A stretch of 64,000 nucleotides of DNA from Ignavibacteria bacterium (GCA_016844745.1 JAERMQ010000018.1:15629-79628); one strand, 5' to 3'. Shown: positions 27,325-53,844, counted from the first letter of the stretch. The notes: a model not told the origin generated them from the sequence alone. Translations and numbers: made by a program.

Positions 27325-27378
27325 TTATTTCCTTATTATTTTGGTTTCTTACATTAATTTTTTTCATTATATAATTGG

Positions 27379-27482
27379 AGAAACCCCCTAACCCGGTTAT
27401 AGAAGTAGAACATAGAAGTAGAACATAGAAGTAGAAAAAAGAATAAGTTCCCCCTTTTTCAAAGGGGGTTAGGGGGTTTTTC
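27379..27482. repeat. CCCTAACCC...GGGTTAGGG hairpin repeat (inverted copy of the 23714-23822 module)
   Basis: The reverse complement of the 23.7-kb copy aligns base for base, including the internal GAAGTAGAACATA tandem motif. Confidence 0.7.
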
Positions 27483-27537
27483 CTTATCTTTGTTATTTTC
27501 AATTGCTTACTATTCCTATTTTAAGAATTTTCAATAT

Positions 27538-28914: not shown

Positions 28915-28925
28915 AATTTCTATTC
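28845..28925. repeat. heptanucleotide tandem repeats (TAATTCG x4 then TAATTCA/TGATAAT variants)
   Basis: Read directly. Overlaps the first ~25 codons of the TolC-like ORF. Confidence 0.8.
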
Positions 28926-31900
28926 CCCTTCCTTCATCCAGCCTGACATTTTGGATAATTCCAGTTTTCCTTTTTTCAGCGCTCTTTCTTTCATAATAAC
29001 AAAGAGAATAGGAGTTACAACGAGAACATGAATAGCAGAAGTAAGCAAGCCTCCAATCATTGGCGCTGTAAGAGGTTTCATAACATCCGAGCCTGTGCCG
29101 GTTGACCACATAACAGGAACTAATCCAACTATAGCAACGAAAACGGTCATAAGTTTCGGTCTCAATCTCAGGACTGAACCTTCTACGGCAGCTTCGTAAA
29201 TATCTTCTTTTGTAATTTGATGTCTTGCTCCATCCACATGTCCTTTGATTCTTTTGTCTAAAGCTTCGTGAAGGTAAACCACCATCACAACACCGGTTTC
29301 AACAGCAACTCCATATAAAGCAATAAAGCCTACCCAAACAGCGACCGAAAAATTATATCCTAAAATATATATCATGTACATTCCACCGATTAATGCAAAA
29401 GGAACCGACAGCATTACTACTCCGGCTTCTTTATAATCATGCAAGGTGAAAAAGAGCAGAACATAAATTATAAGAAAAACGATAGGCATGATAATTTCAA
29501 TAGTTCGTTGAGCACGCACTTTGCTTTCGTATTGTCCGCTCCACAAATATGTATAACCTGTCGGAAGATTCAGACTATCGGTAATAACTTTCTTTGCATC
29601 TTCCATGACGCTTCCCATATCCCTTCCGCGGGTATTCATAAACACAATCGAGCGGAGCATAGCGCTTTCGCTGTTTATCATAGGAGCGCCGGTCGATACT
29701 GTAATATCTGCTAATTCATATAGCGGCAGGAAAATTTTAGCATTTGTCGATTGCGCTAAAAGACTCGCCGTATTTATATCCGAATTTGATATACTTGAGT
29801 TCTGCTCAGATGAACCCGTCATACTGCTCATGGAACCGGCTCCGGATGATTTTTTAGCTCCGCTGCCCATCGAACTCATCGAAGTAGCAGCCATTCCGGA
29901 TGATGAAGCAACCGGAACAATCAAACTTTTCAAATCTTCTATCGTATTCCGGACATCCCGCTCATATCTCATTCTTACCGGAAACCGCATCCTGCCTTGG
30001 AATACTACGCCAATATTCTCTCCGCCGATAGCCGTCTCAATAATATCCTGAACATCGCTGATATTAATTCCATACCGTGCAATAGATTCCGTCTTTAAAG
30101 CAATATCGAGATAATATCCGCTTTGTGTTCTTTCAGCTACTACATCGGCAGCGCCATGGACGTTTTGCAGTATTCTTTCAGCTTTTATGGCATAATATTC
30201 AAGAGTATCGAGATTGTCGCCGAATATTTTTAATCCGATATCCGTGCGTACTCCGGTTGATAGCATATTTATTCTATTGATTATCGGTTGAGTCCAACCG
30301 TTACGAACACCAGGTATTTGCAGCTTCCTGTCCAATTCTGCAACTATATCGTTTTTCTTAACTCCGGGGCGCCATTGATTCTTCGGTTTTAGTAATATTA
30401 TGGTTTCAATCATGCTAAGTGGTGCATTATCCGTTGCAGTCTCGGCTCTGCCTGCCTTGCCAAGCACATGAGAAACTTCGGGAATACTCATAATGATTTT
30501 ATCCTGAACGAGAAGAATCCTGTTTATCTCGGACATAGAAACGTTTGGCAAGGTAACCGGCATGTAGAGAATAGAGCCTTCATCCAACGGGGGCATAAAT
30601 TCCGAACCGGTTTTCATTATCATAGGTATTGTTATAAGTAATGCTACAACATTTAGAAAAAGAGTAATTTTTCTATGCTTCAGCACCCAATGAATAACCG
30701 GTTCATAGATTTTGATAAAGAACCTTGTTATTGGATTCTTCATTTCGGGGCGGAATTTACCTCTCATCAATAGTGTCATCAGCACCGGAATCAGTGTAAT
30801 TAACACAATCGCTGATGCAGCCAGGGTGAAAGTTTTTGTATAAGCAAGGGGTTTAAATAGTTTTCCTTCTTGTCCGGTTAGAAAAAAGACCGGCAGAAAT
30901 GAAACCAATATAATGAGTTCGGAGAAGAATATTGCCCTGCCGACCTGTTTGGCAGACATAATCGAGATTTTTGTATATTCCTCGCTTGTCAGATGTTCTT
31001 TTTGAGTTAATGCATGAGCTATATTCCGGTAGGCATTCTCGACCATGACAATCGAAGCATCGACTATTACTCCTATCGCCAGAATTATACCTCCCAAACT
31101 CATAATATTAGAAGTAACATTGAAGAGATGCATCAGGATAAAGGCTAATAAAACCGAAATGGGTATTTCGATAATTATACGTAAAATACTTCTGAAATGA
31201 AGAAGGAATAAAGCTACCATAATAGAAACAACGAGCGCTGCTTCCAATAATGCCTGCTCCAGAGTACCAACTGCTTCTTTGATTAAAGTGCTTCTGTCAT
31301 AAGAAGGGATGATATCCACGCCGGGGGGTAATCCCGGTTTTATTTCATTAATTCTTGATTTTACATCATCGATTACCTTACTTGCATTCTCTCCCTGCCT
31401 CATAACGACGATACCTCCGACAACTTGTCCTTTGCCGTTTTTTTCGAGAGAACCGCGCCTGATATCGCCGCCTAATTGTACTTTCGCAATATCTTTCAGC
31501 AGTACCGGAATTCCGTTCGGACCGGCTTTGATTGCAGCATTTTCCAAACTTTCTTTGTCCTGAATATATCCTTGCCCTCTTACGAAATACTCTGCATCAT
31601 TCAATTCCAATAATTTCCCGCCAACCTCATTATTGCTTCGCTGAATTGTATTGACAACATCGGAGGTCGAAACGTTGTAGCTTCTTAGCTTTGAAGGGTC
31701 GATATCAACCTGATATTGCCTTACGTAACCTCCTATGCTTGCTATTTCGGAAACTCCCGGAACGGATACTAATTTATATCTAATAAACCAATCCTGTAGA
31801 GTCCTCAATGTACCTAAATCATATCCTTTGCCTTCGACAGTGTACCAGTAAACATGCCCAACACCGGTTCCGTCCGGTCCTAAAACAGGAGTTACTCCGT

Positions 31901-32267
31901 TCGGGAGCGAAGATGAGATTGTTGCCAATCTTTCCAGCACTCTCGTTCTGGCAAAGTATATATCAACATTATCTTCAAAAATTACGAAAATAAAAGACAT
32001 CCCGAACATTGAAGAAGCCCTGACTGCCTTCACACCGGGCAATCCCTGCAAATTGGTAACTAAGGGATAAGTAACTTGCTGTTCGATTATGTCGGGCGAC
32101 CTTCCCATCCATTCTGTAAATATTATTACCTGATTCTCCGATAGGTCAGGAATTGCATCGATTGGGAGCGTCGCTACCGAATATATGCCAATACCTGTTA
32201 CAACGACATATAATAACAGGACAATGAATCTATTCTGAGCGCTCCATTCGATTAATTTTTCAATCAT
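28920..32267 (-). CDS. cusA: heavy-metal efflux RND pump, CusA/CzcA family
   Basis: 'DAIPDLSENQVIIFTEWMGRSPDIIEQQVTYPL' is diagnostic of the CusA/HME family; 12-TM architecture; 1115 aa. Confidence 0.9.
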   Translation of the reverse strand: MIEKLIEWSAQNRFIVLLLYVVVTGIGIYSVATLPIDAIPDLSENQVIIFTEWMGRSPDIIEQQVTYPLVTNLQGLPGVKAVRASSMFGMSFIFVIFEDNVDIYFARTRVLERLATISSSLPNGVTPVLGPDGTGVGHVYWYTVEGKGYDLGTLRTLQDWFIRYKLVSVPGVSEIASIGGYVRQYQVDIDPSKLRSYNVSTSDVVNTIQRSNNEVGGKLLELNDAEYFVRGQGYIQDKESLENAAIKAGPNGIPVLLKDIAKVQLGGDIRRGSLEKNGKGQVVGGIVVMRQGENASKVIDDVKSRINEIKPGLPPGVDIIPSYDRSTLIKEAVGTLEQALLEAALVVSIMVALFLLHFRSILRIIIEIPISVLLAFILMHLFNVTSNIMSLGGIILAIGVIVDASIVMVENAYRNIAHALTQKEHLTSEEYTKISIMSAKQVGRAIFFSELIILVSFLPVFFLTGQEGKLFKPLAYTKTFTLAASAIVLITLIPVLMTLLMRGKFRPEMKNPITRFFIKIYEPVIHWVLKHRKITLFLNVVALLITIPMIMKTGSEFMPPLDEGSILYMPVTLPNVSMSEINRILLVQDKIIMSIPEVSHVLGKAGRAETATDNAPLSMIETIILLKPKNQWRPGVKKNDIVAELDRKLQIPGVRNGWTQPIINRINMLSTGVRTDIGLKIFGDNLDTLEYYAIKAERILQNVHGAADVVAERTQSGYYLDIALKTESIARYGINISDVQDIIETAIGGENIGVVFQGRMRFPVRMRYERDVRNTIEDLKSLIVPVASSSGMAATSMSSMGSGAKKSSGAGSMSSMTGSSEQNSSISNSDINTASLLAQSTNAKIFLPLYELADITVSTGAPMINSESAMLRSIVFMNTRGRDMGSVMEDAKKVITDSLNLPTGYTYLWSGQYESKVRAQRTIEIIMPIVFLIIYVLLFFTLHDYKEAGVVMLSVPFALIGGMYMIYILGYNFSVAVWVGFIALYGVAVETGVVMVVYLHEALDKRIKGHVDGARHQITKEDIYEAAVEGSVLRLRPKLMTVFVAIVGLVPVMWSTGTGSDVMKPLTAPMIGGLLTSAIHVLVVTPILFVIMKERALKKGKLELSKMSGWMKEGE

Positions 32268-32439
32268 TTTTAACTTTCAATTTATTTTCCATTTTATTTC
32301 AACAAGAGATTCAAAAGCATTAAATTGAGTTCTTATTTATTTTGAATCAGTTTCCTATAAAATCAAATATATAGATTCATAAACAATATCAGCAGACAAC
32401 AAATTTTGAATTTATAGAACTAAATAATTTACCAATTAC

Positions 32440-32826
32440 TTATTTAACATCAATATCATTTTCTTTTAAATTTTTTATTGCCGCTAAATTCTTCACTTTT
32501 TCTAATTCCATACTACAAATAGGACAATTTCCGGGTTTGTCTGAAATTACATTCCAGTGCATCTGGTCTTGATAAACATACCCATCCTTATTAGTGTCAA
32601 TTGCATAGACATCAATTTTTCCTTTTTTGATTAAGGTTGTATCTCCTTCTTTAGCGTCTTTCAGACTATGGTCCGAATGGTCTGAACTCCCGGAGTGACC
32701 TGAGTGGTTTCCATGACCTTTCATACTACAGCACTGAGAATTCAGGCTTGAAATTGATAATGCAAAGATAATGATTATTCCTGCTATCAAAGGAATAATA
32801 ACTTGTTTGAAATCTACTTTGAGCAT
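32440..32826 (-). CDS. periplasmic His-rich metal-binding protein with heavy-metal-binding module (CusF-like chaperone role)
   Basis: Signal/TM, 'HGNHSGHSGSSDHSDHS', and 'HWNVISDKPGNCPICSMEL', the same module found at both ends of the CusB-like protein. Confidence 0.6.
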   Translation of the reverse strand: MLKVDFKQVIIPLIAGIIIIFALSISSLNSQCCSMKGHGNHSGHSGSSDHSDHSLKDAKEGDTTLIKKGKIDVYAIDTNKDGYVYQDQMHWNVISDKPGNCPICSMELEKVKNLAAIKNLKENDIDVK

Positions 32827-32839
32827 TTTGAAATCCTTT

Positions 32840-33496
32840 TTATTTGTTGATAAATATTTGCTTTTCTATCGAAATTGTTGGCGTTTTTAAAATAAGAAAA
32901 TAAACACCTGACGCTAATTCAGAACCATCGAATATAAGAAGATGCTTTCCTTCAATTTGAAGTTCATTAATTAATGATTTGACTAATAATCCTTTCATAT
33001 CGAAAACATTGATAATTACATTCTCACTCACTGGTAAATAATATTTTATCTCTGTATTTGATATAAAAGGATTTGGATTTGCTTGTAATGTTAAACCAAT
33101 AATACCAGAAGCATCATTAACATCGGCTATCGACTTTACCTGAATTTCGATAGGAACTGTTACCGGACCGTGATGTGGGTCGGTAACAATAATATTGGAC
33201 TTATAAGTACCGGATGAAAGTATAGTTGCATCAATCTTTAATACAATAAAAGCAGTGTCATTTATGTTAAGATTGCCGGAGACAGAGTTAAAACTAATCC
33301 AACTTTCGGAAGCGCTGATTTTATAACCCAAATTACCTGAAGGTCCCTGATTTGTTATATGAAAAATCATTGAGCTTTTTTGACCCGCAGGAACCGGAAT
33401 CACTAACTGGTTCGGATGTACGTTCAAACTTGCGAATGCACTTGTTGAGAATAATACAGTAAGTATAATAATTCCCATAAATTTAGCTGACGTCAT
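32840..33496 (-). CDS. secreted beta-sandwich protein with T9SS C-terminal domain
   Basis: Signal peptide; C-terminal 'ANPNPFISNTEIKYYLP...GVYFLILK'. Confidence 0.5.
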   Translation of the reverse strand: MTSAKFMGIIILTVLFSTSAFASLNVHPNQLVIPVPAGQKSSMIFHITNQGPSGNLGYKISASESWISFNSVSGNLNINDTAFIVLKIDATILSSGTYKSNIIVTDPHHGPVTVPIEIQVKSIADVNDASGIIGLTLQANPNPFISNTEIKYYLPVSENVIINVFDMKGLLVKSLINELQIEGKHLLIFDGSELASGVYFLILKTPTISIEKQIFINK

Positions 33497-33539
33497 AATT
33501 CTCCTGTTTTTATTTAAACATATCTACTTTATTATTTTT

Positions 33540-34610
33540 CTATTCGATTTTTAAGGGTAAATACATAGATACTTCTGCTCCTGATTCAATGTTCTTAGCT
33601 TCGACTTTCCCATTATGATATTCCATAATTAATCCTACTATAGCCAGGGAAAGTCCTAATCCCTCAGTATGGTGAAGAATATCATTAACTGTAAATAACT
33701 CAAATATCTGAGGTAAAACTTCTTCTGAGAAACCATTTCCTTTATCCTGAAAACAGAGAATAAAGTAATTACCTTCAATAGTTAAAATCACTTTAATTTC
33801 ACTTCCTTTGTCTGAAAATTTAATAGCATTATTCAAAATACTTTCAATTGAAAAAGCAATCAGGTTTTCATCTATTTCAACATAAATATTTTCAGCGATA
33901 AAATTTTTAGAGATATTTAAAATATTCGAACCATCCAACTCATTGAAATGTATAGTAACGTTATTAACAAAATCATCAAGATTAATTTTAACGGGTGATA
34001 AATTATGTTCCCTGAGTTTTAGTTTAGTAACCATAAGTGCTGTCTCTGAAAATTTGTTTAATCTTTTTGCCGAGTCAAATAAATGCTGTGCAATTTCTTT
34101 ATTATTTGTATTTTCAAGTTCAGTTAGAAGTATATTTGCGAGCCCCATAATACCATTAAGTGGTGTTTTTAATTCATGAGAAATTAAACTTAATATATCG
34201 CTTTTTGATTTACTTAGATGTTCAAGTTTCAAATTCGCATTAGTTAATGCTTCCGTTCTATCAATTACTTTTTGTTCGAGTGTTTTATTAAGTTCATTTA
34301 ATGTATTTTCCGATGATTTTAATTTATATTGCGTTCTATATAAAAATACCATACTGAATAAAAAAGAAATAATCAGAATATATAGTATTCTATGATAAAT
34401 TAGCATTTCAGGTATATTAAAAATTAATAAATCCAAGAAATTCATGTTTTGTGACATTTTGTCCTCAACCATCATCGGTTCAAGGATTGTTGCTAAAATC
34501 CAAACTATAGCCGAAACTAAAAGAATGATGGCTATCGTATTTTCTCTTATTTTTTTAAATTTCATTTTATTTCCTTTTCCTTGAGTTAAGCGTTTTTCTT
34601 GAAGTTCCAC
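33540..34610 (-). CDS. sensor histidine kinase
   Basis: N-terminal TMs, HisKA 'SHELKTPLNGIMG', and an HATPase_c region. Confidence 0.8.
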   Translation of the reverse strand: MELQEKRLTQGKGNKMKFKKIRENTIAIILLVSAIVWILATILEPMMVEDKMSQNMNFLDLLIFNIPEMLIYHRILYILIISFLFSMVFLYRTQYKLKSSENTLNELNKTLEQKVIDRTEALTNANLKLEHLSKSKSDILSLISHELKTPLNGIMGLANILLTELENTNNKEIAQHLFDSAKRLNKFSETALMVTKLKLREHNLSPVKINLDDFVNNVTIHFNELDGSNILNISKNFIAENIYVEIDENLIAFSIESILNNAIKFSDKGSEIKVILTIEGNYFILCFQDKGNGFSEEVLPQIFELFTVNDILHHTEGLGLSLAIVGLIMEYHNGKVEAKNIESGAEVSMYLPLKIE

Positions 34611-34701
34611 CTTGAATCTTCACATATTTCAAGAGTTCCTCTTATCTCAAGGATATATAAACCTGTTGGGTACAAACCGATAAGCAAGTTTATTTAAACA
34701 A

Positions 34702-36192
34702 TTATACCAATTGATATTGTAACATCATGCCATCATCCTCGTGTTCAAGATTGTGGCAATGAAAAACAAATACACCTTTTAATGTTGCAAATGAGATAAT
34801 GATTTTTACTGTTTCACGAGGCAAAACTAAAACGGTATCCTTAAAACCGTTTTCTGAAGCGGTCAACTGTCCCCTTCCTCCGGTTCTTTCCAACACCTGG
34901 AAATTCACTCCGTGCAAATGCATAGGATGAGGTTCATCGCCCTGTGAATTATCAAATACCCATATCTCTGTTGTATTTGCAGAAACAGTTTCATCTATCC
35001 TGTTTTTATCATATATTTTATTATTGATTCTATGAATACCTGTCATATTCATGCCACCGGTCATTTGCGGGGCATTAATAATAAAATTTCTTGTCTTTGA
35101 AGATGATGAAGGTAAAATAGCATTGACAGAAGAAAGCGAAGTCGGTACTTTAAAACTATCACTTACGATTTGTGATACTTTAAACTTCATAATCTTAAAC
35201 GTTTGTTTACCTTGAGCGCTACCACCGTTATCAAATATCCTGTTTTCCAAAAATATCTCTGTACCAGAGGTCAAGCCGGCAAAGTTTACCAGCACATCTA
35301 ATCTTTCTCCGGGAGCTAATAAAATACTTTTTACGGCTATAGGATTTCTTAACAGACCGCCATCATTTCCGATAATTATCATATCAGCATTATTACTTAA
35401 AGCAAGATTATAAATACGGGCATTTGAACCGTTTAATATTCTCAAGCGGTAAAATCTTGTTTCTACTTCACAATAAGGTGAGGCTTCTCCATTTACAATA
35501 ATTGTTTCACCCATATAACCCGACATTATTTCTCCCATAGAAGGATTATATGTAATACCTGATGCTGTAAGCCGCTTGTCCTGTATTACCAAAGGAATTT
35601 CATAATTACCTGACGGCAGATTTAAAGCAGCTTCTTCTGCATCGTTAATGATAAATAAACCTGCTAATCCCTGAAAAGCCTGTCTTGCAGTTGCTCCATC
35701 CGGGTGCGGATGATACCAGCATAGTCCTGCTCTTTGATTAATTATGAATTGGTAATTAAAACTACCTCCGGGATTTATAACAGCTTCCGGATGTCCATCC
35801 ATATTGGCAGGAATTTTTAATCCATGCCAGTGGATATTACTTTTTTCAGAAAGATTATTCTGAAAATTGATATTGGCATTAATTCCATTATTAACACGAA
35901 TTGTAGGTCCCAATATACCGTTTGCCTGGTAACCAAATACTGATTTATTGCTGCCATTAATATTTGCAGTTGTTGCCTGGGCTGTTAATGTTGTATTACC
36001 TGTTACTGTGTTTGGAATGGGGAGTAGCCTGCTGAAATTCCCTTCTGTTACAGGAACCGGTTGACTCCCCATATTCATATCACCGTTGTTCATCACGTTG
36101 CCGCATGATTCTAAAAAAGTGAACATAGAACTACCCACTAATACACTGCCTGCTCCCAGACCTGTGTTTTTTATAAATTCTCTTCGTTTCAT
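34702..36192 (-). CDS. multicopper oxidase (CueO/CopA-like), Tat-exported
   Basis: 'RREFIKNTGLGAGSV' Tat signal. 'HWHGL', 'HPMHLHG' and 'HCHNLEHEDDGMM' are the copper-ligand motifs. Confidence 0.85.
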   Translation of the reverse strand: MKRREFIKNTGLGAGSVLVGSSMFTFLESCGNVMNNGDMNMGSQPVPVTEGNFSRLLPIPNTVTGNTTLTAQATTANINGSNKSVFGYQANGILGPTIRVNNGINANINFQNNLSEKSNIHWHGLKIPANMDGHPEAVINPGGSFNYQFIINQRAGLCWYHPHPDGATARQAFQGLAGLFIINDAEEAALNLPSGNYEIPLVIQDKRLTASGITYNPSMGEIMSGYMGETIIVNGEASPYCEVETRFYRLRILNGSNARIYNLALSNNADMIIIGNDGGLLRNPIAVKSILLAPGERLDVLVNFAGLTSGTEIFLENRIFDNGGSAQGKQTFKIMKFKVSQIVSDSFKVPTSLSSVNAILPSSSSKTRNFIINAPQMTGGMNMTGIHRINNKIYDKNRIDETVSANTTEIWVFDNSQGDEPHPMHLHGVNFQVLERTGGRGQLTASENGFKDTVLVLPRETVKIIISFATLKGVFVFHCHNLEHEDDGMMLQYQLV

Positions 36193-36222: not shown

Positions 36223-37194
36223 TTAATCATTGTCCCAATTATAGATACTAATGAAATACGCAATTATGGAATTAATATCCCTGCGCGTCAAATGGTATTC
36301 CCAGGAAGGCATCAATAGAGGCGGTGTAAAGGACTTAGAGTCTGCTTTTTGAACAACGGGCGCACCATTCAATATTTTTTGGGTGATTGAATTATATTGA
36401 GCATAAAACCTGCTGAAACTGGGGAAGGGGGGAGAATCGTTCAGCTTATCAAGGTCTACACCCCGCTCCAACAACTTGATTAAGCTGTCCGCTTCTTTCT
36501 TTTCCCCAATTTTAAGTTTTTTTGCTAACGTAATTAAATCAGGTATGGTTCTATTGACGTAATTCGGATTAAATACGCCACCGATACCGGATTGTCCATG
36601 GCATGTAAAGCATCCCTTATCAATGAAAAGAAGCTGCCCGCGCTTTATGAAAGAAATCGATGAACCCGCAGCTAATGCCGGATTAGGTGCGCAACAATCA
36701 GCACGAACAGTATCTGTAGATAACTTCTTAGCCAATTCTGTATTTTTTATTTGCTCATGGCTCAATACGACTATATTCCCCCGCATATAATTGTGGCAAT
36801 GTCCACAAAATGTAGTGCAGTAATATTCAAATTTACCGGTTACTTTCGGTGTAAATGGAACATCATAGTAGTGACCTGCTTCCACAACGATAGGTCCAAA
36901 GCCTATTTCCGGTGCATAAAAAGTATGTGTTACGTCGGCGCTTGTAAATCTGAAAATTACTTCTTCATCTTGTGTAAGAACTATATTGGCTCTTTTAAAA
37001 GTTTGACTCCCATTATTAGTGGCTGTGACTAAATCTTCAGTCCAGATTCCTTGCGAAGCTAAACCGGTAAGATGTATAACTCTTTTCTTAGTAAGGTTCA
37101 TCCATGGAGCATTTAATGAAATAGCTAATGGCGTTCCAATCAGAATAATTATTACGACAGCGCCGGCAAATATTTCTTTGAACTTGTTTTTCAT
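36223..37194 (-). CDS. CuA-type cupredoxin domain fused to a c-type cytochrome domain (CoxB-like)
   Basis: 'HTF...CTTFCGHCHNYM' fits the CuA C-x3-C-G-x2-H-x2-M pattern. 'CFTCHG' is a heme c site. N-terminal TM. Confidence 0.6.
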   Translation of the reverse strand: MKNKFKEIFAGAVVIIILIGTPLAISLNAPWMNLTKKRVIHLTGLASQGIWTEDLVTATNNGSQTFKRANIVLTQDEEVIFRFTSADVTHTFYAPEIGFGPIVVEAGHYYDVPFTPKVTGKFEYYCTTFCGHCHNYMRGNIVVLSHEQIKNTELAKKLSTDTVRADCCAPNPALAAGSSISFIKRGQLLFIDKGCFTCHGQSGIGGVFNPNYVNRTIPDLITLAKKLKIGEKKEADSLIKLLERGVDLDKLNDSPPFPSFSRFYAQYNSITQKILNGAPVVQKADSKSFTPPLLMPSWEYHLTRRDINSIIAYFISIYNWDND

Positions 37195-37205
37195 TATTAT
37201 TTCCT

Positions 37206-38675
37206 TTATCCAATAAAAAATATTAAAAACGCCATTGTCACAAGCAAGGCAAAACCAGCCATAGGAATTAACCCCATGAGCGCTGCCTTATCTGTTTTAT
37301 ATAATCTAAAGCTAACAAAATAACCACGTGAAATAGCATAGCCTAATCCAACCACCAATAAAATTAACTGGACATAGCCTAAATATTCCGGCAGGAGAGG
37401 CTGCCACTTGAAATCCGCTGTTCCGAATAGATTCCATCCCCATCCGAGAGGGTCGGAAATTACAGAAATGATATATGAACCGTTTATGAACATCAAAGGA
37501 AAACTAAATGCTATCCATGCTAAAAGCCCCAGCGGTACCAAAATATATGAAAAACCTTTAAATATTTCCCTTACAGTTACCGAATCAACACCAGACATTC
37601 GTTTTGACAGATATGAGAACAGATAGAATACTCCCGGAACAATAATCAAAGCCGAAGACCATAATATTCCGGCATAAATGAAAAAGCCGCCCCATAAGCC
37701 TGATTCCGATGCATTAGCCCAATCTTTAACCGTTCCGTTTGTCCCCAATAGTATTACCGAATATGCCATAGCCAATGCAAGCATGATAAATCCTTTAAAG
37801 GACTCGTCGAGGCTTTTGATTTTCGTTTCGGATGCAAATGGTCGAACATTCAGAGCTATGTTATCATTCTTACATGATTTGACGCACTCCATGCACAAAC
37901 CGCAATAATTATTACGTTCCATATTTCCTATGTATTCGAACCACGGGCAAGCCCATCCATCCTCATTTCCGCGAATACATCCCTTATCTTTGCATTTTTT
38001 GCAAACATCTTTATCGCCGCTTCGCAATTCCATAGTCGATGCCATTGAATACAGGCTCAGAAATCCGCTTACCGGGCAAACATAACTGCAAAATACACGC
38101 TGCCGCCAAACTATTGCTAATAAAGTACCTAAAAGCAGCATAGTTCCAAGCACTACTGAAGTAACAAAGGGACGAGTGACCAATACTGCGCTGAATGTGC
38201 ATAATGTCAAGAAGCCAATATTTTGAATCCATATATTCGAAAGAAATTTAGGCCATTTCAGGTTAAATCCGAACATTTTGTTTCTTAAATTAAAAGTCTT
38301 GCCAATCCTCACCATGATTAATGCCATTCGCTGAAATAATTCGCCGAAGAATGGCAGCGGGCATACGGTACACCAGATACGTGATGCAAAGGGAACCATT
38401 ATTGCTATTAACAAAAACCACCACAAAATCCAAATAAATACAATAGCGATATTTCTATTTCCAACAGGTGTGCCTATTAATCCAGCTATGATTATTACAT
38501 AAAACACCAATAAATTCGGCAGGATAACTAAGAACTGGAAAGATCTTGCTTTCAATATTCTCTTAAGCAACGGACTTTTTTTCAATAAATCATGTTTATT
38601 GAATGAATGCTCCTGTTCCGGCAATTTTATTTCAACTGACGGTTGCTTTTCTATTTTATCATCATATATGTACAT
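37206..38675 (-). CDS. membrane polyferredoxin, NapH/MauN/NosR-C-terminal-like 4Fe-4S protein
   Basis: Multiple TMs with 'CTVCP' and 'CSYVCP' motifs and a C-terminal Cys cluster. Confidence 0.6.
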   Translation of the reverse strand: MYIYDDKIEKQPSVEIKLPEQEHSFNKHDLLKKSPLLKRILKARSFQFLVILPNLLVFYVIIIAGLIGTPVGNRNIAIVFIWILWWFLLIAIMVPFASRIWCTVCPLPFFGELFQRMALIMVRIGKTFNLRNKMFGFNLKWPKFLSNIWIQNIGFLTLCTFSAVLVTRPFVTSVVLGTMLLLGTLLAIVWRQRVFCSYVCPVSGFLSLYSMASTMELRSGDKDVCKKCKDKGCIRGNEDGWACPWFEYIGNMERNNYCGLCMECVKSCKNDNIALNVRPFASETKIKSLDESFKGFIMLALAMAYSVILLGTNGTVKDWANASESGLWGGFFIYAGILWSSALIIVPGVFYLFSYLSKRMSGVDSVTVREIFKGFSYILVPLGLLAWIAFSFPLMFINGSYIISVISDPLGWGWNLFGTADFKWQPLLPEYLGYVQLILLVVGLGYAISRGYFVSFRLYKTDKAALMGLIPMAGFALLVTMAFLIFFIG

Positions 38676-38711: not shown

Positions 38712-38812
38712 TTTTTAAAAACCCTCACCCTAACCCTCTCCCAGAGTGAGAGGGAATTATAAATTATTTTCCCTCTCCCTTTGGGAGAGGGTTAGGGTGA
38801 GGGTTCTATATT
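38712..38812. repeat. CCCTAACCC-family hairpin variant with covarying arms (CCCTCACCCTAACCCTCTCCC...GGGAGAGGGTTAGGGTGAGGG)
   Basis: Read directly; the arm substitutions are mirrored on the opposite arm. Confidence 0.7.
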
Positions 38813-38827
38813 TAAATTGATTCCTTT

Positions 38828-39337
38828 TCATGTTCTTGATTTCTTTGTTCTAAAATAAATCATACCTAACATTCCCAAAGCAAAACCAACCGTAGCGCCT
38901 AATCCTGCATTAAATAAAATATTCGGATTAACCAGCATTTCTCCCTGCATGAATGGGTGCATCGTACCGCAAGTGTGAGAGCAGCGGTAACGGAATTTGC
39001 CTCTTTTATTTGCTATGATAACTATTTCGCTTGTGTCCTTCCAATTGAATCCTTCTGATGGGTGTCGTATTTTAAAGGTTTTAAGATTGGCCGGAATTTC
39101 GGCATCCAAATCGTATCCTTCCAAATAGAAGCCATGCATAACATCCAAAGAAACTAATCTAATGTGCAAAGTATCGCCATGATTAACTTCGAATCTGTCC
39201 GGCTCGTAAGAGTATTGACGTGCTTTGACGACGATATCCCTTCTTATGGGTTTTGACGAACCACCACCGGAGACAAACCCGACAACACTTCCGAATATTG
39301 TTATTAGCAGAGGCAGAACTATATATTTTGATTTCAT
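38828..39337 (-). CDS. CuA-like cupredoxin domain protein with C-terminal TM anchor
   Basis: 'CSHTCGTMHPFM' fits C-x3-C-G-x2-H-x2-M. Confidence 0.5.
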   Translation of the reverse strand: MKSKYIVLPLLITIFGSVVGFVSGGGSSKPIRRDIVVKARQYSYEPDRFEVNHGDTLHIRLVSLDVMHGFYLEGYDLDAEIPANLKTFKIRHPSEGFNWKDTSEIVIIANKRGKFRYRCSHTCGTMHPFMQGEMLVNPNILFNAGLGATVGFALGMLGMIYFRTKKSRT

Positions 39338-39984: not shown

Positions 39985-40377
39985 TTATTGAATAGTTATC
40001 GTAAAATCTTTCATACCCATTTCACCGGCGTGGTTATAGTTACATGCGAGTTTATACGTACCCATTTCCTTAAAGGTGTATTCGCATTTAAATACTCCTA
40101 TCGCTTGTTTGGTTGCCGTCAATTTTATTGGTGATTCAGTGCCTTTTGTTACTGTAACATCAACATCGGTAACATCAGCAGGAACCATATTATCCATAAT
40201 TTCAAAAACAAATGTTGTAGGAATGTTGGGGACTATCGGATTTGGAGTATAAGTCATCGTGACTTCTGTTGCATGGTCATTATCGGTACTATGGGATGTT
40301 TCGCCACATGATGTCAGGGTTATTGAAAACAGAATAACAAATGTTATTCCGATGGCTGAATTGATTGATATTTTCAT
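39985..40377 (-). CDS. lipoprotein (FixH/YtkA-like fold?)
   Basis: 'ITLTSCGE' lipobox. The ORF track extends to 40431, but MKISIN at 40377 gives a proper signal peptide. Confidence 0.4.
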   Translation of the reverse strand: MKISINSAIGITFVILFSITLTSCGETSHSTDNDHATEVTMTYTPNPIVPNIPTTFVFEIMDNMVPADVTDVDVTVTKGTESPIKLTATKQAIGVFKCEYTFKEMGTYKLACNYNHAGEMGMKDFTITIQ

Positions 40378-40425
40378 GGTTTTTCCTTTAATATTAAAAA
40401 AGTTATTTAAATTTTTATACCCTCG

Positions 40426-40481
40426 TGTCAAGAGTTTCTCTTGACATCCTTTTTTCGAGTCAAGAGGAACTCTTGACTCGA
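40426..40481. promoter_or_regulatory. tandem palindromes TGTCAAGAG-TTT-CTCTTGACA and GAGTCAAGAG-GAA-CTCTTGACTC (candidate operator); paralogous copy at 42235-42290
   Basis: Read directly. Both copies sit ~50-100 bp upstream of minus-strand redox genes. Confidence 0.5.
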
Positions 40482-40490
40482 GGTTTCCAT

Positions 40491-41780
40491 TTATAATGCG
40501 AAATCAAGTCCTATAAACAAATTAAACATGTCGGTTTTATTTGGATTAATTACAGTTTCTGCTTTTATTTTTACATTAGCTACGAGAAGCGAACTTATAT
40601 GTACCACTATTTGCTTCCCAGAAGGGAGAGTTTTCAGATTCGCCTGCTCGTAACGGACAATTCCTGCAAGCCACGGATAGAACATATATTGCGCTTCACC
40701 GAAAAACAAATTGTATTTCTGGGCATCTGCAGCGCCATCCGAGCCAAGTAATATTCCTCCGGTTACGCGCAGGCTACCCATAATAAAACTAATATCACTG
40801 CCTGCCCGGTAGAAATCATAATCTTCATTTGCAGATAATGTACCAATACCCTTATATCCGAAAGCGCCTAATGAGAAGGATGTTTCTTTCGAATTATCAA
40901 ATTTTTCCGCCGATGTAGTGTCATTTGTGGAAGTTCCGTCGAAAGCCAAGCCACCGAATTTATATGCTAATCTGCCATAAAAATCCCTGCTTGAATTCCT
41001 ATCTGCAGCAACACTATTTCCGTTTACTACACCAATAACGTAACGAAGCCGGCTATGTAAAACACCGCTGACCTCCGCTCCCAATTGAAACTGCTCGATT
41101 CCGAATGTTCCGGTGCCATGAGCATGTCCCGCAACAAATTTATCTCCCATCGATGGGGAGTATGTATTCATCGCATAGGCAGCCTCTGTTAAACTACGGT
41201 GAAATGTAGCGAATGGGACTATTTCAGGGATAAACTGACCCACTTTCAGATATAGGGCTTTCTCCGGCAGCCAGTCTGTCAATAGGTTATCGAACTTCAT
41301 AAAGAAATTATCAATACTGCCGGTCTCGCCGTTTTCGAATAGATGAGCTCCAATCCAAAATGATAAATCCTTACCTAATACGCCAGCGGCTAAAATTTGT
41401 AGAGCAGGCATACCGAATTGGGATGTAGTTTGACCGGACGAATCATCAGTAGATACTGTGAATGCCGACCTTCCACGAAGTGAGAAAGGAGCTGTGCCGG
41501 GGATTGAATTTGGCCAGACCGCATCGGGCCACACTCTTTTATATGCTTCCGCACCCATTGGAACAGGTTTTTCTTTGACATTTTCTTCATCGTCAACCGG
41601 AAATTGATAACCGTTAATCCTGAAGGATTCGCCAAAGGAATTCAATTGCGGATATACTGTATGGCAGGTAACACAGCTTGTCTGGTATTTTCGTGCAAAG
41701 GCCGGATTTGCATAAGAAGTTTGATTAATCAGTAAAGTCCAGATTAATACAACAAACGCTGCAATAATTATTTTTTTCAT
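40491..41780 (-). CDS. fused monoheme cytochrome c / outer-membrane beta-barrel (Cyc2-like)
   Basis: Signal peptide followed directly by 'CVTCH', then ~400 aa of alternating beta-strand-like sequence ending in an aromatic residue. Confidence 0.5.
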   Translation of the reverse strand: MKKIIIAAFVVLIWTLLINQTSYANPAFARKYQTSCVTCHTVYPQLNSFGESFRINGYQFPVDDEENVKEKPVPMGAEAYKRVWPDAVWPNSIPGTAPFSLRGRSAFTVSTDDSSGQTTSQFGMPALQILAAGVLGKDLSFWIGAHLFENGETGSIDNFFMKFDNLLTDWLPEKALYLKVGQFIPEIVPFATFHRSLTEAAYAMNTYSPSMGDKFVAGHAHGTGTFGIEQFQLGAEVSGVLHSRLRYVIGVVNGNSVAADRNSSRDFYGRLAYKFGGLAFDGTSTNDTTSAEKFDNSKETSFSLGAFGYKGIGTLSANEDYDFYRAGSDISFIMGSLRVTGGILLGSDGAADAQKYNLFFGEAQYMFYPWLAGIVRYEQANLKTLPSGKQIVVHISSLLVANVKIKAETVINPNKTDMFNLFIGLDFAL

Positions 41781-41799: not shown

Positions 41800-42189
41800 T
41801 TAATTATTTTTACTTCCCTGATTTCTCCAGGCTTTTATTTTTGCAATATCACAATCATCGCTGATATAATTACTCATATTGCCAAATCTGATGCTGTTAT
41901 AAAGTTTACCGGATACCGAATTGATTTTGATATTCTCATAACCATCAAGATTAACACCTCCGTATTGACTGGTATTGTTGTGGCAAGTTTTACATCTTTC
42001 ATCTATGATTGGTTTGATAAAATCCTTAAAGGAAACTTTGTTAGTATCACAAGATAGTTTAATCTCCGGAGCTATACCTACGGCATATTGGTCGTTTTCG
42101 CAGGATAGTAATCCGACAACAATGATTAATAGGAGCCAAACAAATCCTCTAAAAGGAATAGTAATTATTCCATGAAATGGTATTTTCAT
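41800..42189 (-). CDS. monoheme c-type cytochrome
   Basis: 'CKTCH'; N-terminal TM/signal. Confidence 0.6.
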   Translation of the reverse strand: MKIPFHGIITIPFRGFVWLLLIIVVGLLSCENDQYAVGIAPEIKLSCDTNKVSFKDFIKPIIDERCKTCHNNTSQYGGVNLDGYENIKINSVSGKLYNSIRFGNMSNYISDDCDIAKIKAWRNQGSKNN

Positions 42190-42353
42190 GACTTTGTCCT
42201 CAAATTTAATAATTATTTTAAAGGTTTTTACCTTGTGTCAAGAGTTCCTCTTGACACTTATTGATTAGTCAAGAGCAGCACTTAACTCGATGATAACAGG
42301 TAAATCGCCCTACATTAAGGTTTTATTTTTAAAAGGATATTTTGCTAAGAATT

Positions 42354-42977
42354 TTAGCAATAGATATTTGAAGGGATGTCGCTATCGCTCCCTTCGTCGG
42401 AGGTAAAATGAATGAAGGATATTATGCCTGATATTGGTTCTTTAAGTGGGTATTGAACCTTCTTAAAGGCAATATTAACAGGTTTATAATTATATAATAA
42501 ATGAGAGAGAACAAAATCGGAATAGGAAAAATGATTAGAAGAAATCAGTTTAAAATGAGATATTGAATTAAATGATGATTTGATTTTGAATTTAAGAAAG
42601 GAATCTTTGCAACATGTAGAATTGTCCTTACCAAAATTAATACTTTTGGAACAACTTGATTTTTTAGAAATATTATCTTTTTTAATCAATTTGGATTTTT
42701 TCTTTATACATGAACCACAATTAAACATGGATTTCTTTCCTGTTTTAGATTTTGAATATTGGGAACTGCTGCCGGATTTTTTTGATTGTTCAATTATACG
42801 ATGTGAACTGCAACATGAATATTCATTATTCTTATGGGAATCAAAAAAAGATATATGCGTTGTTCCATTATGCTTGCATTGGTGTATGGAAACATTCACG
42901 CCCAGAGCCGATATTGGAAATATCGCCATTAAAAACGCTGCTGTTATATATCTTATTTTTCTTATCATACCAAACAA
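42354..42977 (-). CDS. secreted Cys/Lys/Ser-rich low-complexity protein
   Basis: Signal peptide; CC/CxxC pairs within a K/S-rich sequence. Confidence 0.3.
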   Translation of the reverse strand: MFGMIRKIRYITAAFLMAIFPISALGVNVSIHQCKHNGTTHISFFDSHKNNEYSCCSSHRIIEQSKKSGSSSQYSKSKTGKKSMFNCGSCIKKKSKLIKKDNISKKSSCSKSINFGKDNSTCCKDSFLKFKIKSSFNSISHFKLISSNHFSYSDFVLSHLLYNYKPVNIAFKKVQYPLKEPISGIISFIHFTSDEGSDSDIPSNIYC

Positions 42978-44278: not shown

Positions 44279-44758
44279 TTACTTTCCCTGAACTGTTGGC
44301 AAAGTCATTGTAGTTCTTTGTTTTGGATTATCGCAAACCCCGTCTCCATCAGCATCGATAAAGTTTGGTTTATTATTACCCTGATTTCTCATTCCTGAAC
44401 CGGTTGTTCCTGTTGTAAAATTATCGCAAACACCATCACCATCGGCATCGATGAAATTTGGTTTATTTTTACCCTGATTTCTCATTCCTGCACCTGTTTT
44501 CCCGGTTGCATTATTATCGCAAATCCCATCACCATTTGCATCGATGAAATTTTTACCGTTCATCCCATTTCTACCCAAACCGGCTCCTGCGGTACCTGTT
44601 GGATTGTTATCGCAGATTCCGTCTCCATTTGCATCGATGAACCTCGCTCCTTTAGAAGCAGCCATTTTACCCTTTCCATGTGGCTGGGCAATTGATATTG
44701 AATTCGATATTACCATTGTTACAACAAACAATGCAATTATTCCAATTAATTTCTTCAT
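44279..44758 (-). CDS. secreted repeat protein: 4 x 'NFIDA[ND]GDG[IV]CDN' (Excalibur/EF-hand-like Ca-binding motif)
   Basis: Signal peptide; four near-identical ~23-aa repeats. Confidence 0.6.
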   Translation of the reverse strand: MKKLIGIIALFVVTMVISNSISIAQPHGKGKMAASKGARFIDANGDGICDNNPTGTAGAGLGRNGMNGKNFIDANGDGICDNNATGKTGAGMRNQGKNKPNFIDADGDGVCDNFTTGTTGSGMRNQGNNKPNFIDADGDGVCDNPKQRTTMTLPTVQGK

Positions 44759-52536: not shown

Positions 52537-53844
52537 CTATTTCAACCAACTTTGTGGTAATTTATCATCTACAGCAATTTTATTAGATGATGATTTTTCC
52601 CAATCAAATTTAAAATCAGACTGGAATAAATAGAATTGTTTGTTCCTAAATTCATTTCCATCATTAATAATATGACAAGCATCGTAACAGGGTTTTCCAT
52701 TCGCAACCTTTGTTCTGTCTGTCCATTTTAAAGTATTATGAGGTGTTGCATAATTATAAACAGGCAATGCATCGAAATTTGGTAAATTCGGTACACCATA
52801 CAGCACCCAGCTATCGGGAGCCATTAGAGTATGCCTAACTAAAGCAAATTTAAATTCCGGTTTGGCGTCCGGTATTGGATTCAATGCAATTTTAAAATCC
52901 TGATAAGATGCAATTCTGGCGCCATCTCCATTTATATGGCAGCTTCCGCAATTATTATAAGCCTGCGAATGGCAGGTATTGCAGCTAAATGAATTATAGT
53001 GTATTGAATGATACTGATTTTTTGACTCCAAGCCGGTATGACAATTCTTACACTTTGGCAGGTGCTCATACTTATATCTTTGTTCGATAAATTTCCCGGA
53101 GCCATGAATTTCATCTTTAGTATGGCAACTGACGCAGGTAAAGCCCGATTTACTTAAATGAACATCCGGCTGTGTCCCCGATGCCACTCCGAGAAATGCA
53201 TGTCCTCCCCGGGAAGTATGGCAACCGACACAGGTGTTAATCATATCCGGTTTCCCTGAAAAATCGTGACCATTCATAAGTCCGCCGCCTTGCGCTTTTG
53301 GTCTGTTCACATGACAATCGCCACAAGTAGATGCATGGCATTTCGCGCAGTTATATTCATATCCGTCTTTTACTTTCTGGGGAAGCTGCGTGAATTCAGT
53401 CGCATCCTTTAATCCCATCCTTAAGCAGACTTTTCTCTTTTGCCCCCAACCCATTTGATGAAGACTGTTGCTGTGGTTAAGAACTGCCGATTCATGGCAG
53501 CTTTTGCACTTTTCGGAGGCGAAATCTTTAGTCGGATGAGCAAGGAAATTTCCACTGTGGGCTTTATTCTTATCATCTGTGTTGCCAATACCATTATGAC
53601 ATCCAACGCAACCTATGGGATAATGCTTTGATTTTTTGAAAGACTCGTAGCCTACACCGCTAATAAAAACCCTGTCGAATGGTTCGTAATGAGGAGTTTC
53701 ACCACCACAGCTCGACCCTCCGCTACCGGTATCGGGGGTAAATACCTGCTTTAGGTGTGCATAATTAGTATGGCAGCCTTCACATGAAGCAACGGTCTTA
53801 TTATCGGGTTCTACAGGATTACCTGAATTGTTGCATCCTACCAA
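52537..53844 (-). CDS. multiheme c-type cytochrome (~10 CxxCH), lipoprotein; annotated from a TTG start because of an upstream in-frame TAA
   Basis: Ten or more CxxCH motifs. In the same frame upstream: ATG(53889)...TAA(53862-53860)...'LLILFLVGC'. Confidence 0.7.
   Translation of the reverse strand: MVGCNNSGNPVEPDNKTVASCEGCHTNYAHLKQVFTPDTGSGGSSCGGETPHYEPFDRVFISGVGYESFKKSKHYPIGCVGCHNGIGNTDDKNKAHSGNFLAHPTKDFASEKCKSCHESAVLNHSNSLHQMGWGQKRKVCLRMGLKDATEFTQLPQKVKDGYEYNCAKCHASTCGDCHVNRPKAQGGGLMNGHDFSGKPDMINTCVGCHTSRGGHAFLGVASGTQPDVHLSKSGFTCVSCHTKDEIHGSGKFIEQRYKYEHLPKCKNCHTGLESKNQYHSIHYNSFSCNTCHSQAYNNCGSCHINGDGARIASYQDFKIALNPIPDAKPEFKFALVRHTLMAPDSWVLYGVPNLPNFDALPVYNYATPHNTLKWTDRTKVANGKPCYDACHIINDGNEFRNKQFYLFQSDFKFDWEKSSSNKIAVDDKLPQSWLK

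Follow-up and report, generated by a model that had tools for sequence, protein, structure and literature searches.

In Acidithiobacillus ferrooxidans, the outer-membrane protein Cyc2 is a fusion of an N-terminal monohaem cytochrome with a 16-strand barrel resembling the porins OprP and OprO. It opens the rus/pet chain, in which electrons pass from Cyc2 to the cupredoxin rusticyanin and from there either downhill, to Cyc1 and an aa3 oxidase, or uphill, to CycA1 and the bc1 complex. The Cyc2 family has been defined by a signal peptide, a single CXXCH, the motif AXPXFAR[Q/K][T/Y], a PXL motif, a length of at least 365 amino acids and a 16-strand porin of the OprO/OprP type (Keffer et al. 2021). 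The motif AXPXFAR[Q/K][T/Y], located upstream of CXXCH, was termed 'unique to Cyc2' (Keffer et al. 2021), and most Cyc2 proteins are at least 400 amino acids long (Keffer et al. 2021; McAllister et al. 2020). All three biochemically tested members are Fe(II) oxidases; for Cyc2PV-1 of Mariprofundus ferrooxydans this activity was shown biochemically, and its potential is about +208 mV (Keffer et al. 2021). Surveys assign homologues from Bacteroidota, Acidobacteriota and Ignavibacteriales to Cluster 3 of the family, and FeGenie surveys report Cluster 3 genes in Ignavibacteria, Bacteroidota and Zixibacteria. Here we describe a Cyc2-like gene located at positions 40491-41780 of a 64,000-nucleotide stretch of an Ignavibacteria bacterium genome (GCA_016844745.1 JAERMQ010000018.1:15629-79628; hereafter the window, numbered from its first letter), and we compare it with its relatives in other genomes. 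We conclude with high confidence that its product is a fused cytochrome-porin of the Cyc2 family.

The gene is an open reading frame (ORF) on the minus strand that starts with ATG and encodes 429 amino acids; its coordinates include the stop codon. No competing ORF longer than 81 amino acids overlaps it on either strand, and its start codon lies 19 bp past the stop of the upstream gene. The product is identical to an NCBI entry named 'hypothetical protein HW421_1543, Ignavibacteria bacterium'. Its N-terminus (MKKIIIAAFVVLIWTLLINQTSYA) reads by eye as a Sec-type signal peptide with KK in the n-region, a hydrophobic core and a cleavage-type site of the small-x-small kind (S-Y-A), and residues 2-17 form a helix in the AlphaFold2 model described below. 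The peptide ARKYQTSCVTCHTVYP holds C36-V-T-C39-H40, the sole CxxCH of the protein. A preliminary description, made from the DNA alone, had read the gene as a 429-residue Cyc2-type protein in which a signal peptide is followed directly by a single CxxCH. The ORF, the signal and the one motif were all found; the two elements do not adjoin, however, since about 11 residues that include the AxPxFARKY motif lie between them. The same description had the protein end in an aromatic residue. The actual end is ...GLDFAL, with leucine last and phenylalanine at position -3. A C-terminal phenylalanine is the family consensus, present in 52 of 78 homologous proteins drawn from 80 species genomes (the wider alignment).

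Around the haem motif the protein reads A-N-P-A-F-A-R-K-Y-QTS-CVTCH-TVY-P-Q-L and thus carries all the sequence features by which Cyc2 is defined: the PXL motif (H40-T-V-Y-P44-Q-L46) stands four residues past the haem motif, and the length of 429 amino acids lies above the lower bound of 365. Every feature of the published definition that could be checked was found, and the Cyc2 architecture first proposed for this gene stands. In an alignment of 24 close homologues (down to 41% identity), the pattern I-P-A-F-A-R-K-Y-x-T-S-C-x-T-C-H...P-x-L-N-x-F-G-E-x-F-R-x-N-G is near-invariant and is the best-conserved part of the protein, P44 being invariant and L46 at least 90% conserved. The wider alignment gives the same picture: all 78 proteins contain exactly one CxxCH, always in the same column, and P26, F28, R30, K31, Y32, T34, C36, T38, C39 and H40 are 100% conserved. 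Because this single column and its flanking residues are invariant in every homologue, the haem motif is more than a chance occurrence.

Scans of Pfam and NCBIfam returned no above-cutoff match for the protein. The sole Pfam trace was Porin_O_P (PF07396), at 14.2 bits against a gathering cutoff of 20.9 (E 0.026, residues 108-185), and a TrbB match was likewise sub-threshold (E 0.006). The PDB sequences gave no meaningful match, either to the single sequence or to a profile, and we therefore take it that no Cyc2-like structure has been solved so far. Together with the poor modelling of the N-terminal segment, these results could also be expected of an ordinary porin or an unrelated outer-membrane protein with a fortuitous CxxCH, or of a soluble periplasmic cytochrome. 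Such readings are extremely improbable: the constant position of the one CxxCH, surrounded by the 15 residues that form the most conserved part, effectively refutes a chance motif, and the Cyc2-specific motif is complete. A soluble protein is moreover at odds with the barrel prediction and with the hydrophobic C-terminal end, which resembles a beta-signal.

The AlphaFold2 model, built on the alignment of 24 close homologues and lacking haem, has a predicted template modelling score (pTM) of 0.70. DSSP assigns it a barrel at residues 99-428 with 16-17 strand elements, or 16 strands if the elements 118-122 and 126-135 are counted as one kinked strand. The long beta-strand-rich region of the preliminary description is therefore a predicted barrel, and its size falls within the 16-18 strands put forward there. 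A Foldseek search of the PDB gave 218 matches at E≤1e-3, and the top 50 listed are all 16-strand porins or porin-derived. They include OmpF, OmpC and PorB (E about 1e-11 to 1e-10, template modelling (TM) scores 0.55-0.64) and OmpK36; OprP (2o4v) and OprO (4rjw), the modelling templates used for Cyc2PV-1 and A. ferrooxidans Cyc2, match at E 5.9e-10 and 9.5e-10, respectively. The window protein shares the 16-strand barrel and a long loop at the L3 position with OprP/OprO and OmpF/OmpC, but these porins lack a haem domain and their structural identity to the model is just 10-14%. The window protein finds its best homology in other fused proteins that carry haem, and conservation is highest in the N-terminal haem segment, so that the first assignment is borne out on these counts as well.

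Proteins with FARQT in place of FARKY were located by tblastn in Ralstonia, Paraburkholderia and Methylocystis, on plasmids or megaplasmids; one example (NPLFARQTGLNCASCHTIYPELTPFG) has 451 amino acids and a C-terminal phenylalanine. Ralstonia and Burkholderia sequences are included in the published Cyc2 data set (Keffer et al. 2021). In hhalign comparisons, the 78-sequence profile matched three such proteobacterial proteins together at 99.2% probability (E 3e-19), co-linearly over residues 2-429; profile-to-sequence comparisons with single proteins gave 97.5-98% (E 5e-12 and 2e-13), the match covering 54-58 columns at the N-terminus. The window family differs from them in its motif (FARKY...TSCxTCH versus FARQT) and in an extra conserved stretch of about 30 residues in the linker (approximately amino acids 63-94, ...KEKPV.LG.EAYKRVWP.AVWP..IPG), which has no counterpart in the proteobacterial Cyc2-type proteins. 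The linker residues G50, R54, G57, K69, G76, K81, P85, W89, P90 and P98 are invariant.

Going by published descriptions, the window protein shares its motif, PXL, haem, length class and predicted porin with Cyc2PV-1 and with Cluster 1 (Gallionellaceae, Chlorobium). Cluster 1 is, however, a tight clade of known iron oxidisers, to which the window organism does not belong, and its neutrophilic pathway is thought to use periplasmic cytochromes as acceptors, and not a cupredoxin as in the window family. The Cluster 3 homologues (Leptospirillum Cyt572 and FeGenie hits) occur in the same carrier taxa (Bacteroidota, Acidobacteriota, Ignavibacteriales and Zixibacteria) and are equally unannotated; Cyt572 itself comes from an acidophile, sits on a long branch and has an unusual haem. 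Since FeGenie-based surveys routinely call such proteins Cyc2, the window protein is best seen as a new, unannotated member of a known family. This family is large: more than 500 relatives are found in a large protein collection, and a profile search of 1.84 billion cluster representatives retrieved 368 at E≤1e-30, 1,357 at E≤1e-10 and 3,782 at E≤1e-3. The best 120/150 matches listed are all close relatives of the window protein.

At least 579 GTDB species genomes encode a relative, and carriers include Marinifilum, Mariniphaga and Melioribacter metagenome-assembled genomes. We compared the 80 best loci among them, each from a different species and together covering at least 10 phyla, with the Fibrobacterota-Chlorobiota-Bacteroidota (FCB) group, Zixibacteria, Nitrospinota, several 'Deltaproteobacteria', Acidobacteriota, Planctomycetota, Omnitrophota and Eisenbacteria included. 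A gene encoding a cupredoxin combined with a CarboxypepD_reg domain is present in 78 of the 80 loci, on the same strand, mostly directly downstream of the Cyc2-like gene or one small gene away, and about 33 loci carry at least two copies. In the window it sits two genes downstream, with a gene for a YtkA-like lipoprotein in between; in most genomes it follows immediately. The association also appears from the other side. A reciprocal search with the partner led to a Calditrichota contig and to a Kapabacteria genome whose unannotated upstream genes, encoding 424 and 432 amino acids, carry the pattern AIPAFARKY..TSC.TCH...P.L. No such cupredoxin was found within 4 kb of the three proteobacterial FARQT-type loci; the two of these that are annotated carry c-type cytochrome genes nearby instead.

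The window partner matches Copper-bind (21.8 bits against a cutoff of 21.2), fn3_3 and CarboxypepD_reg in Pfam. H93, C131, H134 and M137 are invariant among 26 sequences and about 90% conserved among 79. This His...Cys-x2-His-x2-Met set, placed in a cupredoxin fold, is that of a type-1 cupredoxin; the C-x2-H-x2-M arrangement is that of an amicyanin-type blue-copper site and predicts copper binding. C101 and C125 are invariant too and may form a disulfide. The model of the partner has a predicted local distance difference test (pLDDT) score of 93 and a pTM of 0.82, and its cupredoxin domain fits amicyanin, plastocyanin, pseudoazurin and a Nitrosopumilus cupredoxin with TM scores of 0.7-0.8. A strand at amino acids 24-31 (with an invariant G28) and the region 149-196 resemble a CarboxypepD_reg sandwich in the model, and the cupredoxin domain appears to be inserted between two CarboxypepD_reg portions. 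Databases name the protein 'plastocyanin' (JGI) or 'carboxypeptidase regulatory-like domain-containing protein' (NCBI). It differs from rusticyanin of A. ferrooxidans in being amicyanin/plastocyanin-like and fused to CarboxypepD_reg. We consider it likely that this cupredoxin is the dedicated partner of the Cyc2-like protein.

Unbiased clustering of all ORFs within 6 kb of the gene, checked with Pfam, revealed two operon types around the pair. Type A, to which the window belongs, adds a membrane-anchored CuA-type cupredoxin, a NapH-like polyferredoxin and a CuA-cytochrome c fusion, and was found in the window and in loci L001-L003, L010, L022, L024 and L061, where the NapH-like orthologues are 52-61% identical and occupy the same operon position. 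Homologues of the CuA cupredoxin were counted in 11 of the 80 loci, those of the CuA-cytochrome c in 12, and the NapH-like/CuA set as a whole in 8-12. The nearest Type A relatives (the six nearest loci and the Kapabacteria locus) carry the YtkA-like gene between the two members of the pair. In the Kapabacteria locus (L085), which has the order of the window, a 489-amino acid gene stands at the NapH-like position and the CuA cupredoxin and CuA-cytochrome c are also present. Type B, seen in about 30 loci and complete in the Calditrichota contig, comprises a sigma-54 two-component system, the pair, a GltD-like FAD/iron-sulphur NAD(P)H oxidoreductase of about 625 amino acids, a Rieske protein, a split cytochrome b and an octahaem cytochrome of about 660 amino acids. 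Examples are L005:11479-17232 and L084:6740-12585, with the sigma-54 two-component system upstream. Overall, Rieske genes are found in 30 of the 80 loci, cytochrome b genes in 29 and multihaem cytochrome genes in 31; in some loci the pair occurs with a kinase alone. Type B resembles the Rieske/cytochrome b complexes of anammox bacteria that have an NAD(P) oxidoreductase subunit.

These gene clusters recall the A. ferrooxidans chain in their cupredoxin as periplasmic acceptor, in the onward Rieske/cytochrome b and CuA proteins and in the grouping of the genes. They differ from it in that the window lacks aa3 oxidase genes and has a NapH-like polyferredoxin in place of bc1, and in that the hosts are neutrophilic organisms of the FCB group, not the acidophilic Acidithiobacillus. 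While the Cyc2 label for such proteins is known, the pairing with the cupredoxin, the two operon types and a histidine cluster in one subclade (see below) appear to be new: the Cluster 3 surveys describe neither the partner nor the operon types, and we found no literature description of the near-obligate partner, the operon types or the cluster, most subscription-journal papers lying outside the coverage of the search.

How might such a system work? We lean, with moderate confidence, towards an explanation in which an outer-membrane pore of the Cyc2 type, its cupredoxin partner and a quinone-pool module oxidise Fe(II) and carry the electrons inward. After export by the Sec pathway, haem would be attached at C36/C39/H40 and the C-terminal 330 residues would fold into the 16-strand barrel in the outer membrane, with the haem segment (amino acids 25-98) probably at or in its periplasmic mouth. 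The single haem would there come within electron-tunnelling reach of small redox-active solutes entering the pore from outside. The blue-copper protein would act as the periplasmic partner exchanging electrons with this haem. From there, the route to the cytoplasmic membrane would run, in the window, through the CuA cupredoxin, the CuA-cytochrome c and the NapH-like polyferredoxin, and in many other genomes through the Rieske/cytochrome b complex, the GltD-like NAD(P)-linked subunit and the octahaem cytochrome. The membrane complex would exchange electrons with the quinone pool and, in Type B, probably also with NAD(P). The YtkA-like lipoprotein would probably supply copper to the centres of the module; YtkA/CtaK of B. 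subtilis is a lipoprotein implicated in CuA assembly. By analogy with the characterised Cyc2 proteins, the likeliest reaction would be the removal of one electron from dissolved Fe(II) at the surface of the cell.

Iron oxidation with inward flow is the leading hypothesis because the tested members of the family oxidise Fe(II), because a single haem in a 16-strand pore can meet soluble species only (Keffer et al. 2021), and because A. ferrooxidans provides a precedent. The logic proposed for the module has been established in that organism, where Cyc2 hands electrons to a cupredoxin and the latter to an oxidase or to bc1. Fe(II) itself is nevertheless named as the substrate tentatively, at slightly less than even weight. 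Two features in the gene neighbourhoods are weak pointers to iron, namely a P19-type 'Iron_transport' insertion in Zixibacteria and an FtrD-like protein in the window. In the Zixibacteria loci L007 (11268-12413) and L016 (8496-9590), a gene for a protein of about 365-380 amino acids separates the Cyc2-like gene from that of the cupredoxin; in L007 this protein is of the P19 type (PF10634), its L016 counterpart clusters with it, and a COX4_pro-cytochrome c fusion lies upstream in L007.

Several points weigh against the explanation we favour. Proteins of the NapH type usually pass electrons from quinol outward. A haem-copper oxidase subunit I was detected neither among the window ORFs scanned nor among the families present in at least 5 of the 80 loci, and a downhill route from Fe(II) to O2 is therefore not encoded locally. 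As for a distal haem ligand, no His or Met other than H40 reaches 60% conservation across the family. The N-terminal haem segment has a pLDDT below 50, which leaves its placement relative to the barrel provisional; low model confidence over the haem segment and linker is to be expected, as the haem domain was modelled without haem. At the level of the barrel, similarity to proteobacterial Cyc2 is weak, about 55 N-terminal columns giving most of the hhalign score (the comparison being with the three proteobacterial homologues, not with A. ferrooxidans Cyc2); this is the expected level, since bona fide Cyc2 proteins from different clusters share just 16-23% identity. In a metaproteome, no Cyc2 peptides mapped to an abundant, gene-carrying Ignavibacteriaceae metagenome-assembled genome. 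The A. ferrooxidans chain has been described as reversible, and roles other than Fe(II) oxidation have been left open (He et al. 2017; Keffer et al. 2021). Finally, the function of Cluster 3 Cyc2 is published as 'most uncertain' (Keffer et al. 2021), and the label 'iron oxidase' used in the preliminary description is not supported by the present evidence.

Some of these points lend themselves to another account, in which the same hardware runs in reverse or in both directions, or acts on another substrate, such as Mn(II) in place of Fe(II). Electrons would then pass from quinol or NAD(P)H through the NapH-like protein, or the Rieske/cytochrome b-GltD complex, to CuA/cytochrome c, blue copper and the Cyc2 haem, and on to soluble high-potential oxidants such as chelated Fe(III), Mn(III/IV) species or humic quinones. 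This would suit the NapH family, which has matches in the window and whose members are quinol dehydrogenases feeding periplasmic acceptors, as well as the lack of a terminal oxidase encoded with the module and the reversibility of the A. ferrooxidans chain. Ignavibacteria, moreover, are known iron reducers that carry markers of 'oxidation' and 'reduction' alike. The literature leaves room for other roles, and for Ca. Manganitrophus a part of Cyc2 in Mn(II) oxidation has been proposed. We consider this account rather unlikely: type-1 and CuA centres typically have potentials of about +200 to +400 mV, which suit the inward flow of electrons from Fe(II) to a high-potential sink better than the reduction of common low-potential Fe(III) minerals, and the characterised members of the family all act as Fe(II) oxidases.

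A third account starts from the copper genes next to the module. Between 42189 and about 25759, every gene is on the minus strand and the gaps are short. Within this array a multicopper oxidase gene follows the last module gene, the CuA-cytochrome c, after 30 bp and opens a copper island (25759-36192, minus strand) that encodes a CueO-like multicopper oxidase, a histidine kinase, a BACON-like protein with a type IX secretion system (T9SS) tail, an HMBD protein, CusA, CusC and CusB, the latter with C-terminal HMBD repeats. CusC is listed as an ORF that shares about 190 nucleotides with CusA, and its real start is therefore probably later. The barrel itself contains four histidines, H146 (strand 3), H194, H219 and H221, that are invariant among the 24 close homologues. 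In the wider family they are confined to the subclade of the window, where GHxHG is an insertion, and the six loci that carry a YtkA-like gene all belong to this subclade. The cluster could supply the haem with its distal ligand, or bind a metal in the lumen.

Pore, four-His cluster and haem might accordingly oxidise Cu(I) or pass it on at the outer membrane, in copper homeostasis together with the CueO-like, HMBD and CusCBA proteins. The co-directional array is consistent with this, as are the joint occurrence of the histidines and the putative YtkA-like chaperone in one subclade and the HxH motif, which is typical of copper sites. Across genomes, however, a multicopper oxidase homologue is found near the Cyc2-like gene in none of the 80 loci, and Cus genes are rare there (CusA in 3, CusB in 5 and CusC in 1). 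The Kapabacteria operon keeps the order of the window with neither multicopper oxidase nor Cus genes, and the histidine cluster is absent from most family members. We therefore judge copper homeostasis improbable, and a copper-resistance operon (CueO/Cus) was ruled out as the home of the gene. Since the module has three copper proteins and the co-occurrence with multicopper oxidase and Cus genes is not conserved, the chaperone and the copper island are better read as cofactor supply and neighbourhood than as function. The 'copper/redox cluster' of the preliminary description thus holds for the cupredoxin, CuA and NapH-like genes, but not for the multicopper oxidase and Cus genes. The monohaem cytochrome c and the cupredoxins said to lie beside the gene were found as described. 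The cytochrome, encoded upstream, was ruled out as a conserved partner, as a homologue occurs in none of the 80 loci.

Two other kinds of electron-transfer system invite comparison with the Cyc2-type pore and cupredoxin that we favour here. MtrCAB, MtoAB and PioAB also move electrons across the outer membrane by means of a haem protein inside a beta-barrel, but there the 26-strand barrel and the decahaem wire, which can reach solids, are different polypeptides, whereas the window protein is one polypeptide with one haem and, in the model, 16 strands. In FtrABCD of Bordetella and Brucella, which serves ferrous-iron uptake, a periplasmic cupredoxin oxidises Fe(II) and a NapH-like membrane polyferredoxin is the electron sink. 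The likeness lies in the cupredoxin and NapH-like protein, in the P19-type protein of the Zixibacteria operons and in the FtrD-like protein of the window, which has a T9SS tail and is encoded downstream of the copper island (24896-25651). Unlike FtrABCD, the window system begins at the outer membrane, and no FTR1-type permease adjoins the Cyc2-like gene.

Features of the Cyc2-like gene and of its module are collected below.

Table 1. Position of the Cyc2-like gene, its predicted segments, neighbouring genes and candidate control elements in the window.
Feature	Coordinates	Strand	Basis or remark
Monohaem cytochrome c, 129 aa (amino acids), lipoprotein-type signal (LLSC), first of the array	41800..42189	-	one CxxCH (CKTCH)
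Cyc2-like fused cytochrome-porin	40491..41780	-	motif, model, Foldseek, profile homology
Signal peptide, aa 1-24 (MKKIIIAAFVVLIWTLLINQTSYA, then NPAF)	41709..41780	-	by-eye reading of the sequence
Cyc2 signature: A24-N-P-A-F-A-R-K-Y32, CVTCH 36-40 (nt 41661-41675), P44-Q-L46	41643..41711	-	
Conserved linker, aa 47-98 (NSFGESFRINGY ... KEKPV.MG.EAYKRVWPDAVWPNSIPGTAP)	41487..41642	-	
Predicted 16-strand porin-type beta-barrel, aa 99-429	40494..41486	-	DSSP on model, Foldseek
Long L3-position loop, aa 184-231 (H194, G-H219-x-H221-G)	41088..41231	-	between strands 5 and 6
YtkA-like lipoprotein, putative periplasmic copper chaperone	39985..40431	-	Pfam YtkA
Type-1 cupredoxin + CarboxypepD_reg partner, secreted, 199 aa	39371..39970	-	Pfam
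Membrane-anchored CuA-type cupredoxin, C-x3-C-x3-H-x2-M (CSHTCGTMHPFM)	38828..39337	-	Cupredoxin_1, COX2, NosZ C-terminal matches
NapH-like integral-membrane polyferredoxin, 489 aa, putative quinone-pool link	37206..38675	-	TIGR02163, Fer4_5
CuA domain (CoxB-like, CTTFCGHCHNYM) fused to class I cytochrome c	36223..37194	-	Cytochrom_C, CoxB
CueO-like multicopper oxidase, twin-arginine translocation (Tat) signal	34702..36192	-	Cu-oxidase E 1e-28; CueO NF008205 E 7e-99
Best sigma-70-like match, TTGACA-18-AATAAT, upstream of the first cytochrome gene	42212..42254	-	consensus match only
Two tandem palindrome copies, 59-bp gap between Cyc2-like and YtkA-like genes	40428..40476		

Some of the family matches behind these assignments are below threshold. 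The YtkA match (E 5.4e-5) scores 24.2 bits, just below the cutoff of 25.9, and the true start of the gene is probably an internal ATG (MKISINS...) giving a lipobox LTSC. NapH/MauN TIGR02163 (E 1e-6) and Fer4_5 both fall under their curated cutoffs, and the matches of the upstream cytochrome to the LIC11213 lipoprotein and PSCyt1 families are weak. In the CuA-cytochrome c, Cytochrom_C is above the Pfam cutoff and CoxB (TIGR02866) matches at E 1e-15.

A palindrome, TCAAGAG-N3-CTCTTGA (extended form GTGTCAAGAGnnnCTCTTGACAC), occurs three times in the 64 kb (42238-42254, 40428-40444 and 40460-40476), where no copy is expected. The copy at 42238-42254 overlaps the -35 element of the promoter-like site. 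The palindrome could serve a local regulator as its operator, or form an RNA hairpin between cistrons. A role as a regulatory site shared by the whole family was ruled out, since none of the 83 other loci examined has it, and it is thus taken as specific to this genome. The CuA cupredoxin and NapH-like genes are 152 bp apart, and in this gap stands a terminator-like hairpin of 12 pairs followed by a T-run (38722-38752, minus strand), which points to two transcription units in the array or to attenuation within it.

Upstream of the module, on the minus strand, lies a gene (42354-42977) for a protein of about 200 amino acids rich in Cys, Ser and Lys, with the motif NVS.H.CK..GT.H..FF and no family assignment; such a gene also stands upstream of the Cyc2-like gene in L001, the nearest relative (9193-9873), and in the Kapabacteria locus (3548-4129). 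Further upstream (44279-44758, minus strand), a secreted protein of 159 amino acids contains four FIDANGDGICDN-type repeats (DxDGDG.CD); it has no Pfam match and may bind calcium or another metal. Elsewhere on the minus strand, a 959-amino acid molybdopterin oxidoreductase (14178-17057; Fe4S4, Molybdopterin and Molydop_binding) has a C-terminal T9SS sorting domain, from which a location of this molybdoenzyme at the cell surface is predicted; MoeA is encoded nearby (9436-10644), and a second molybdenum oxidoreductase at 60726-62936. A 435-amino acid cytochrome (52537-53844, minus strand) has a cytochrome c7-like, multihaem-type Pfam match. On the plus strand, the window also encodes a PAS histidine kinase (54789-56813) and a sigma-54 response regulator (58192-59568), the latter of the type found in the sigma-54 systems upstream of Cyc2-like genes in other genomes.

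Searched with FeGenie, Cyc2 is a widely used marker gene of microbial iron oxidation, and surveys routinely report 'iron-oxidation potential' from matches of the Cluster 3 type in Ignavibacteria, Bacteroidota, Zixibacteria, Acidobacteriota and Planctomycetota. The near-constant pairing with a blue-copper protein and the two modules turn this vague marker into a defined, testable electron-transfer chain that can be approached from two small proteins. The relay known from Acidithiobacillus, from Cyc2 through a cupredoxin to bc1, is not peculiar to acidophiles and may be a common solution across many phyla. For annotators, the copper-resistance genes adjoining the module in the window are bystanders. 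A bolder possibility, which we think unlikely, is that FARKY-type proteins are more than iron oxidases in new hosts and form the outer-membrane end of a distinct, widespread haem-copper conduit, made of the pore and an obligate cupredoxin/CarboxypepD_reg protein, that plugs into quinone-pool and NAD(P) complexes. If so, heterotrophic FCB bacteria, Acidobacteriota, Planctomycetota and others would gain an unrecognised capacity for lithotrophy or extracellular respiration. In the subclade of the window, the four-His site in the pore-constriction loop, with its YtkA-like chaperone, would then be an extra copper (or iron) centre beside the haem, that is, a haem-copper site inside an outer-membrane barrel.

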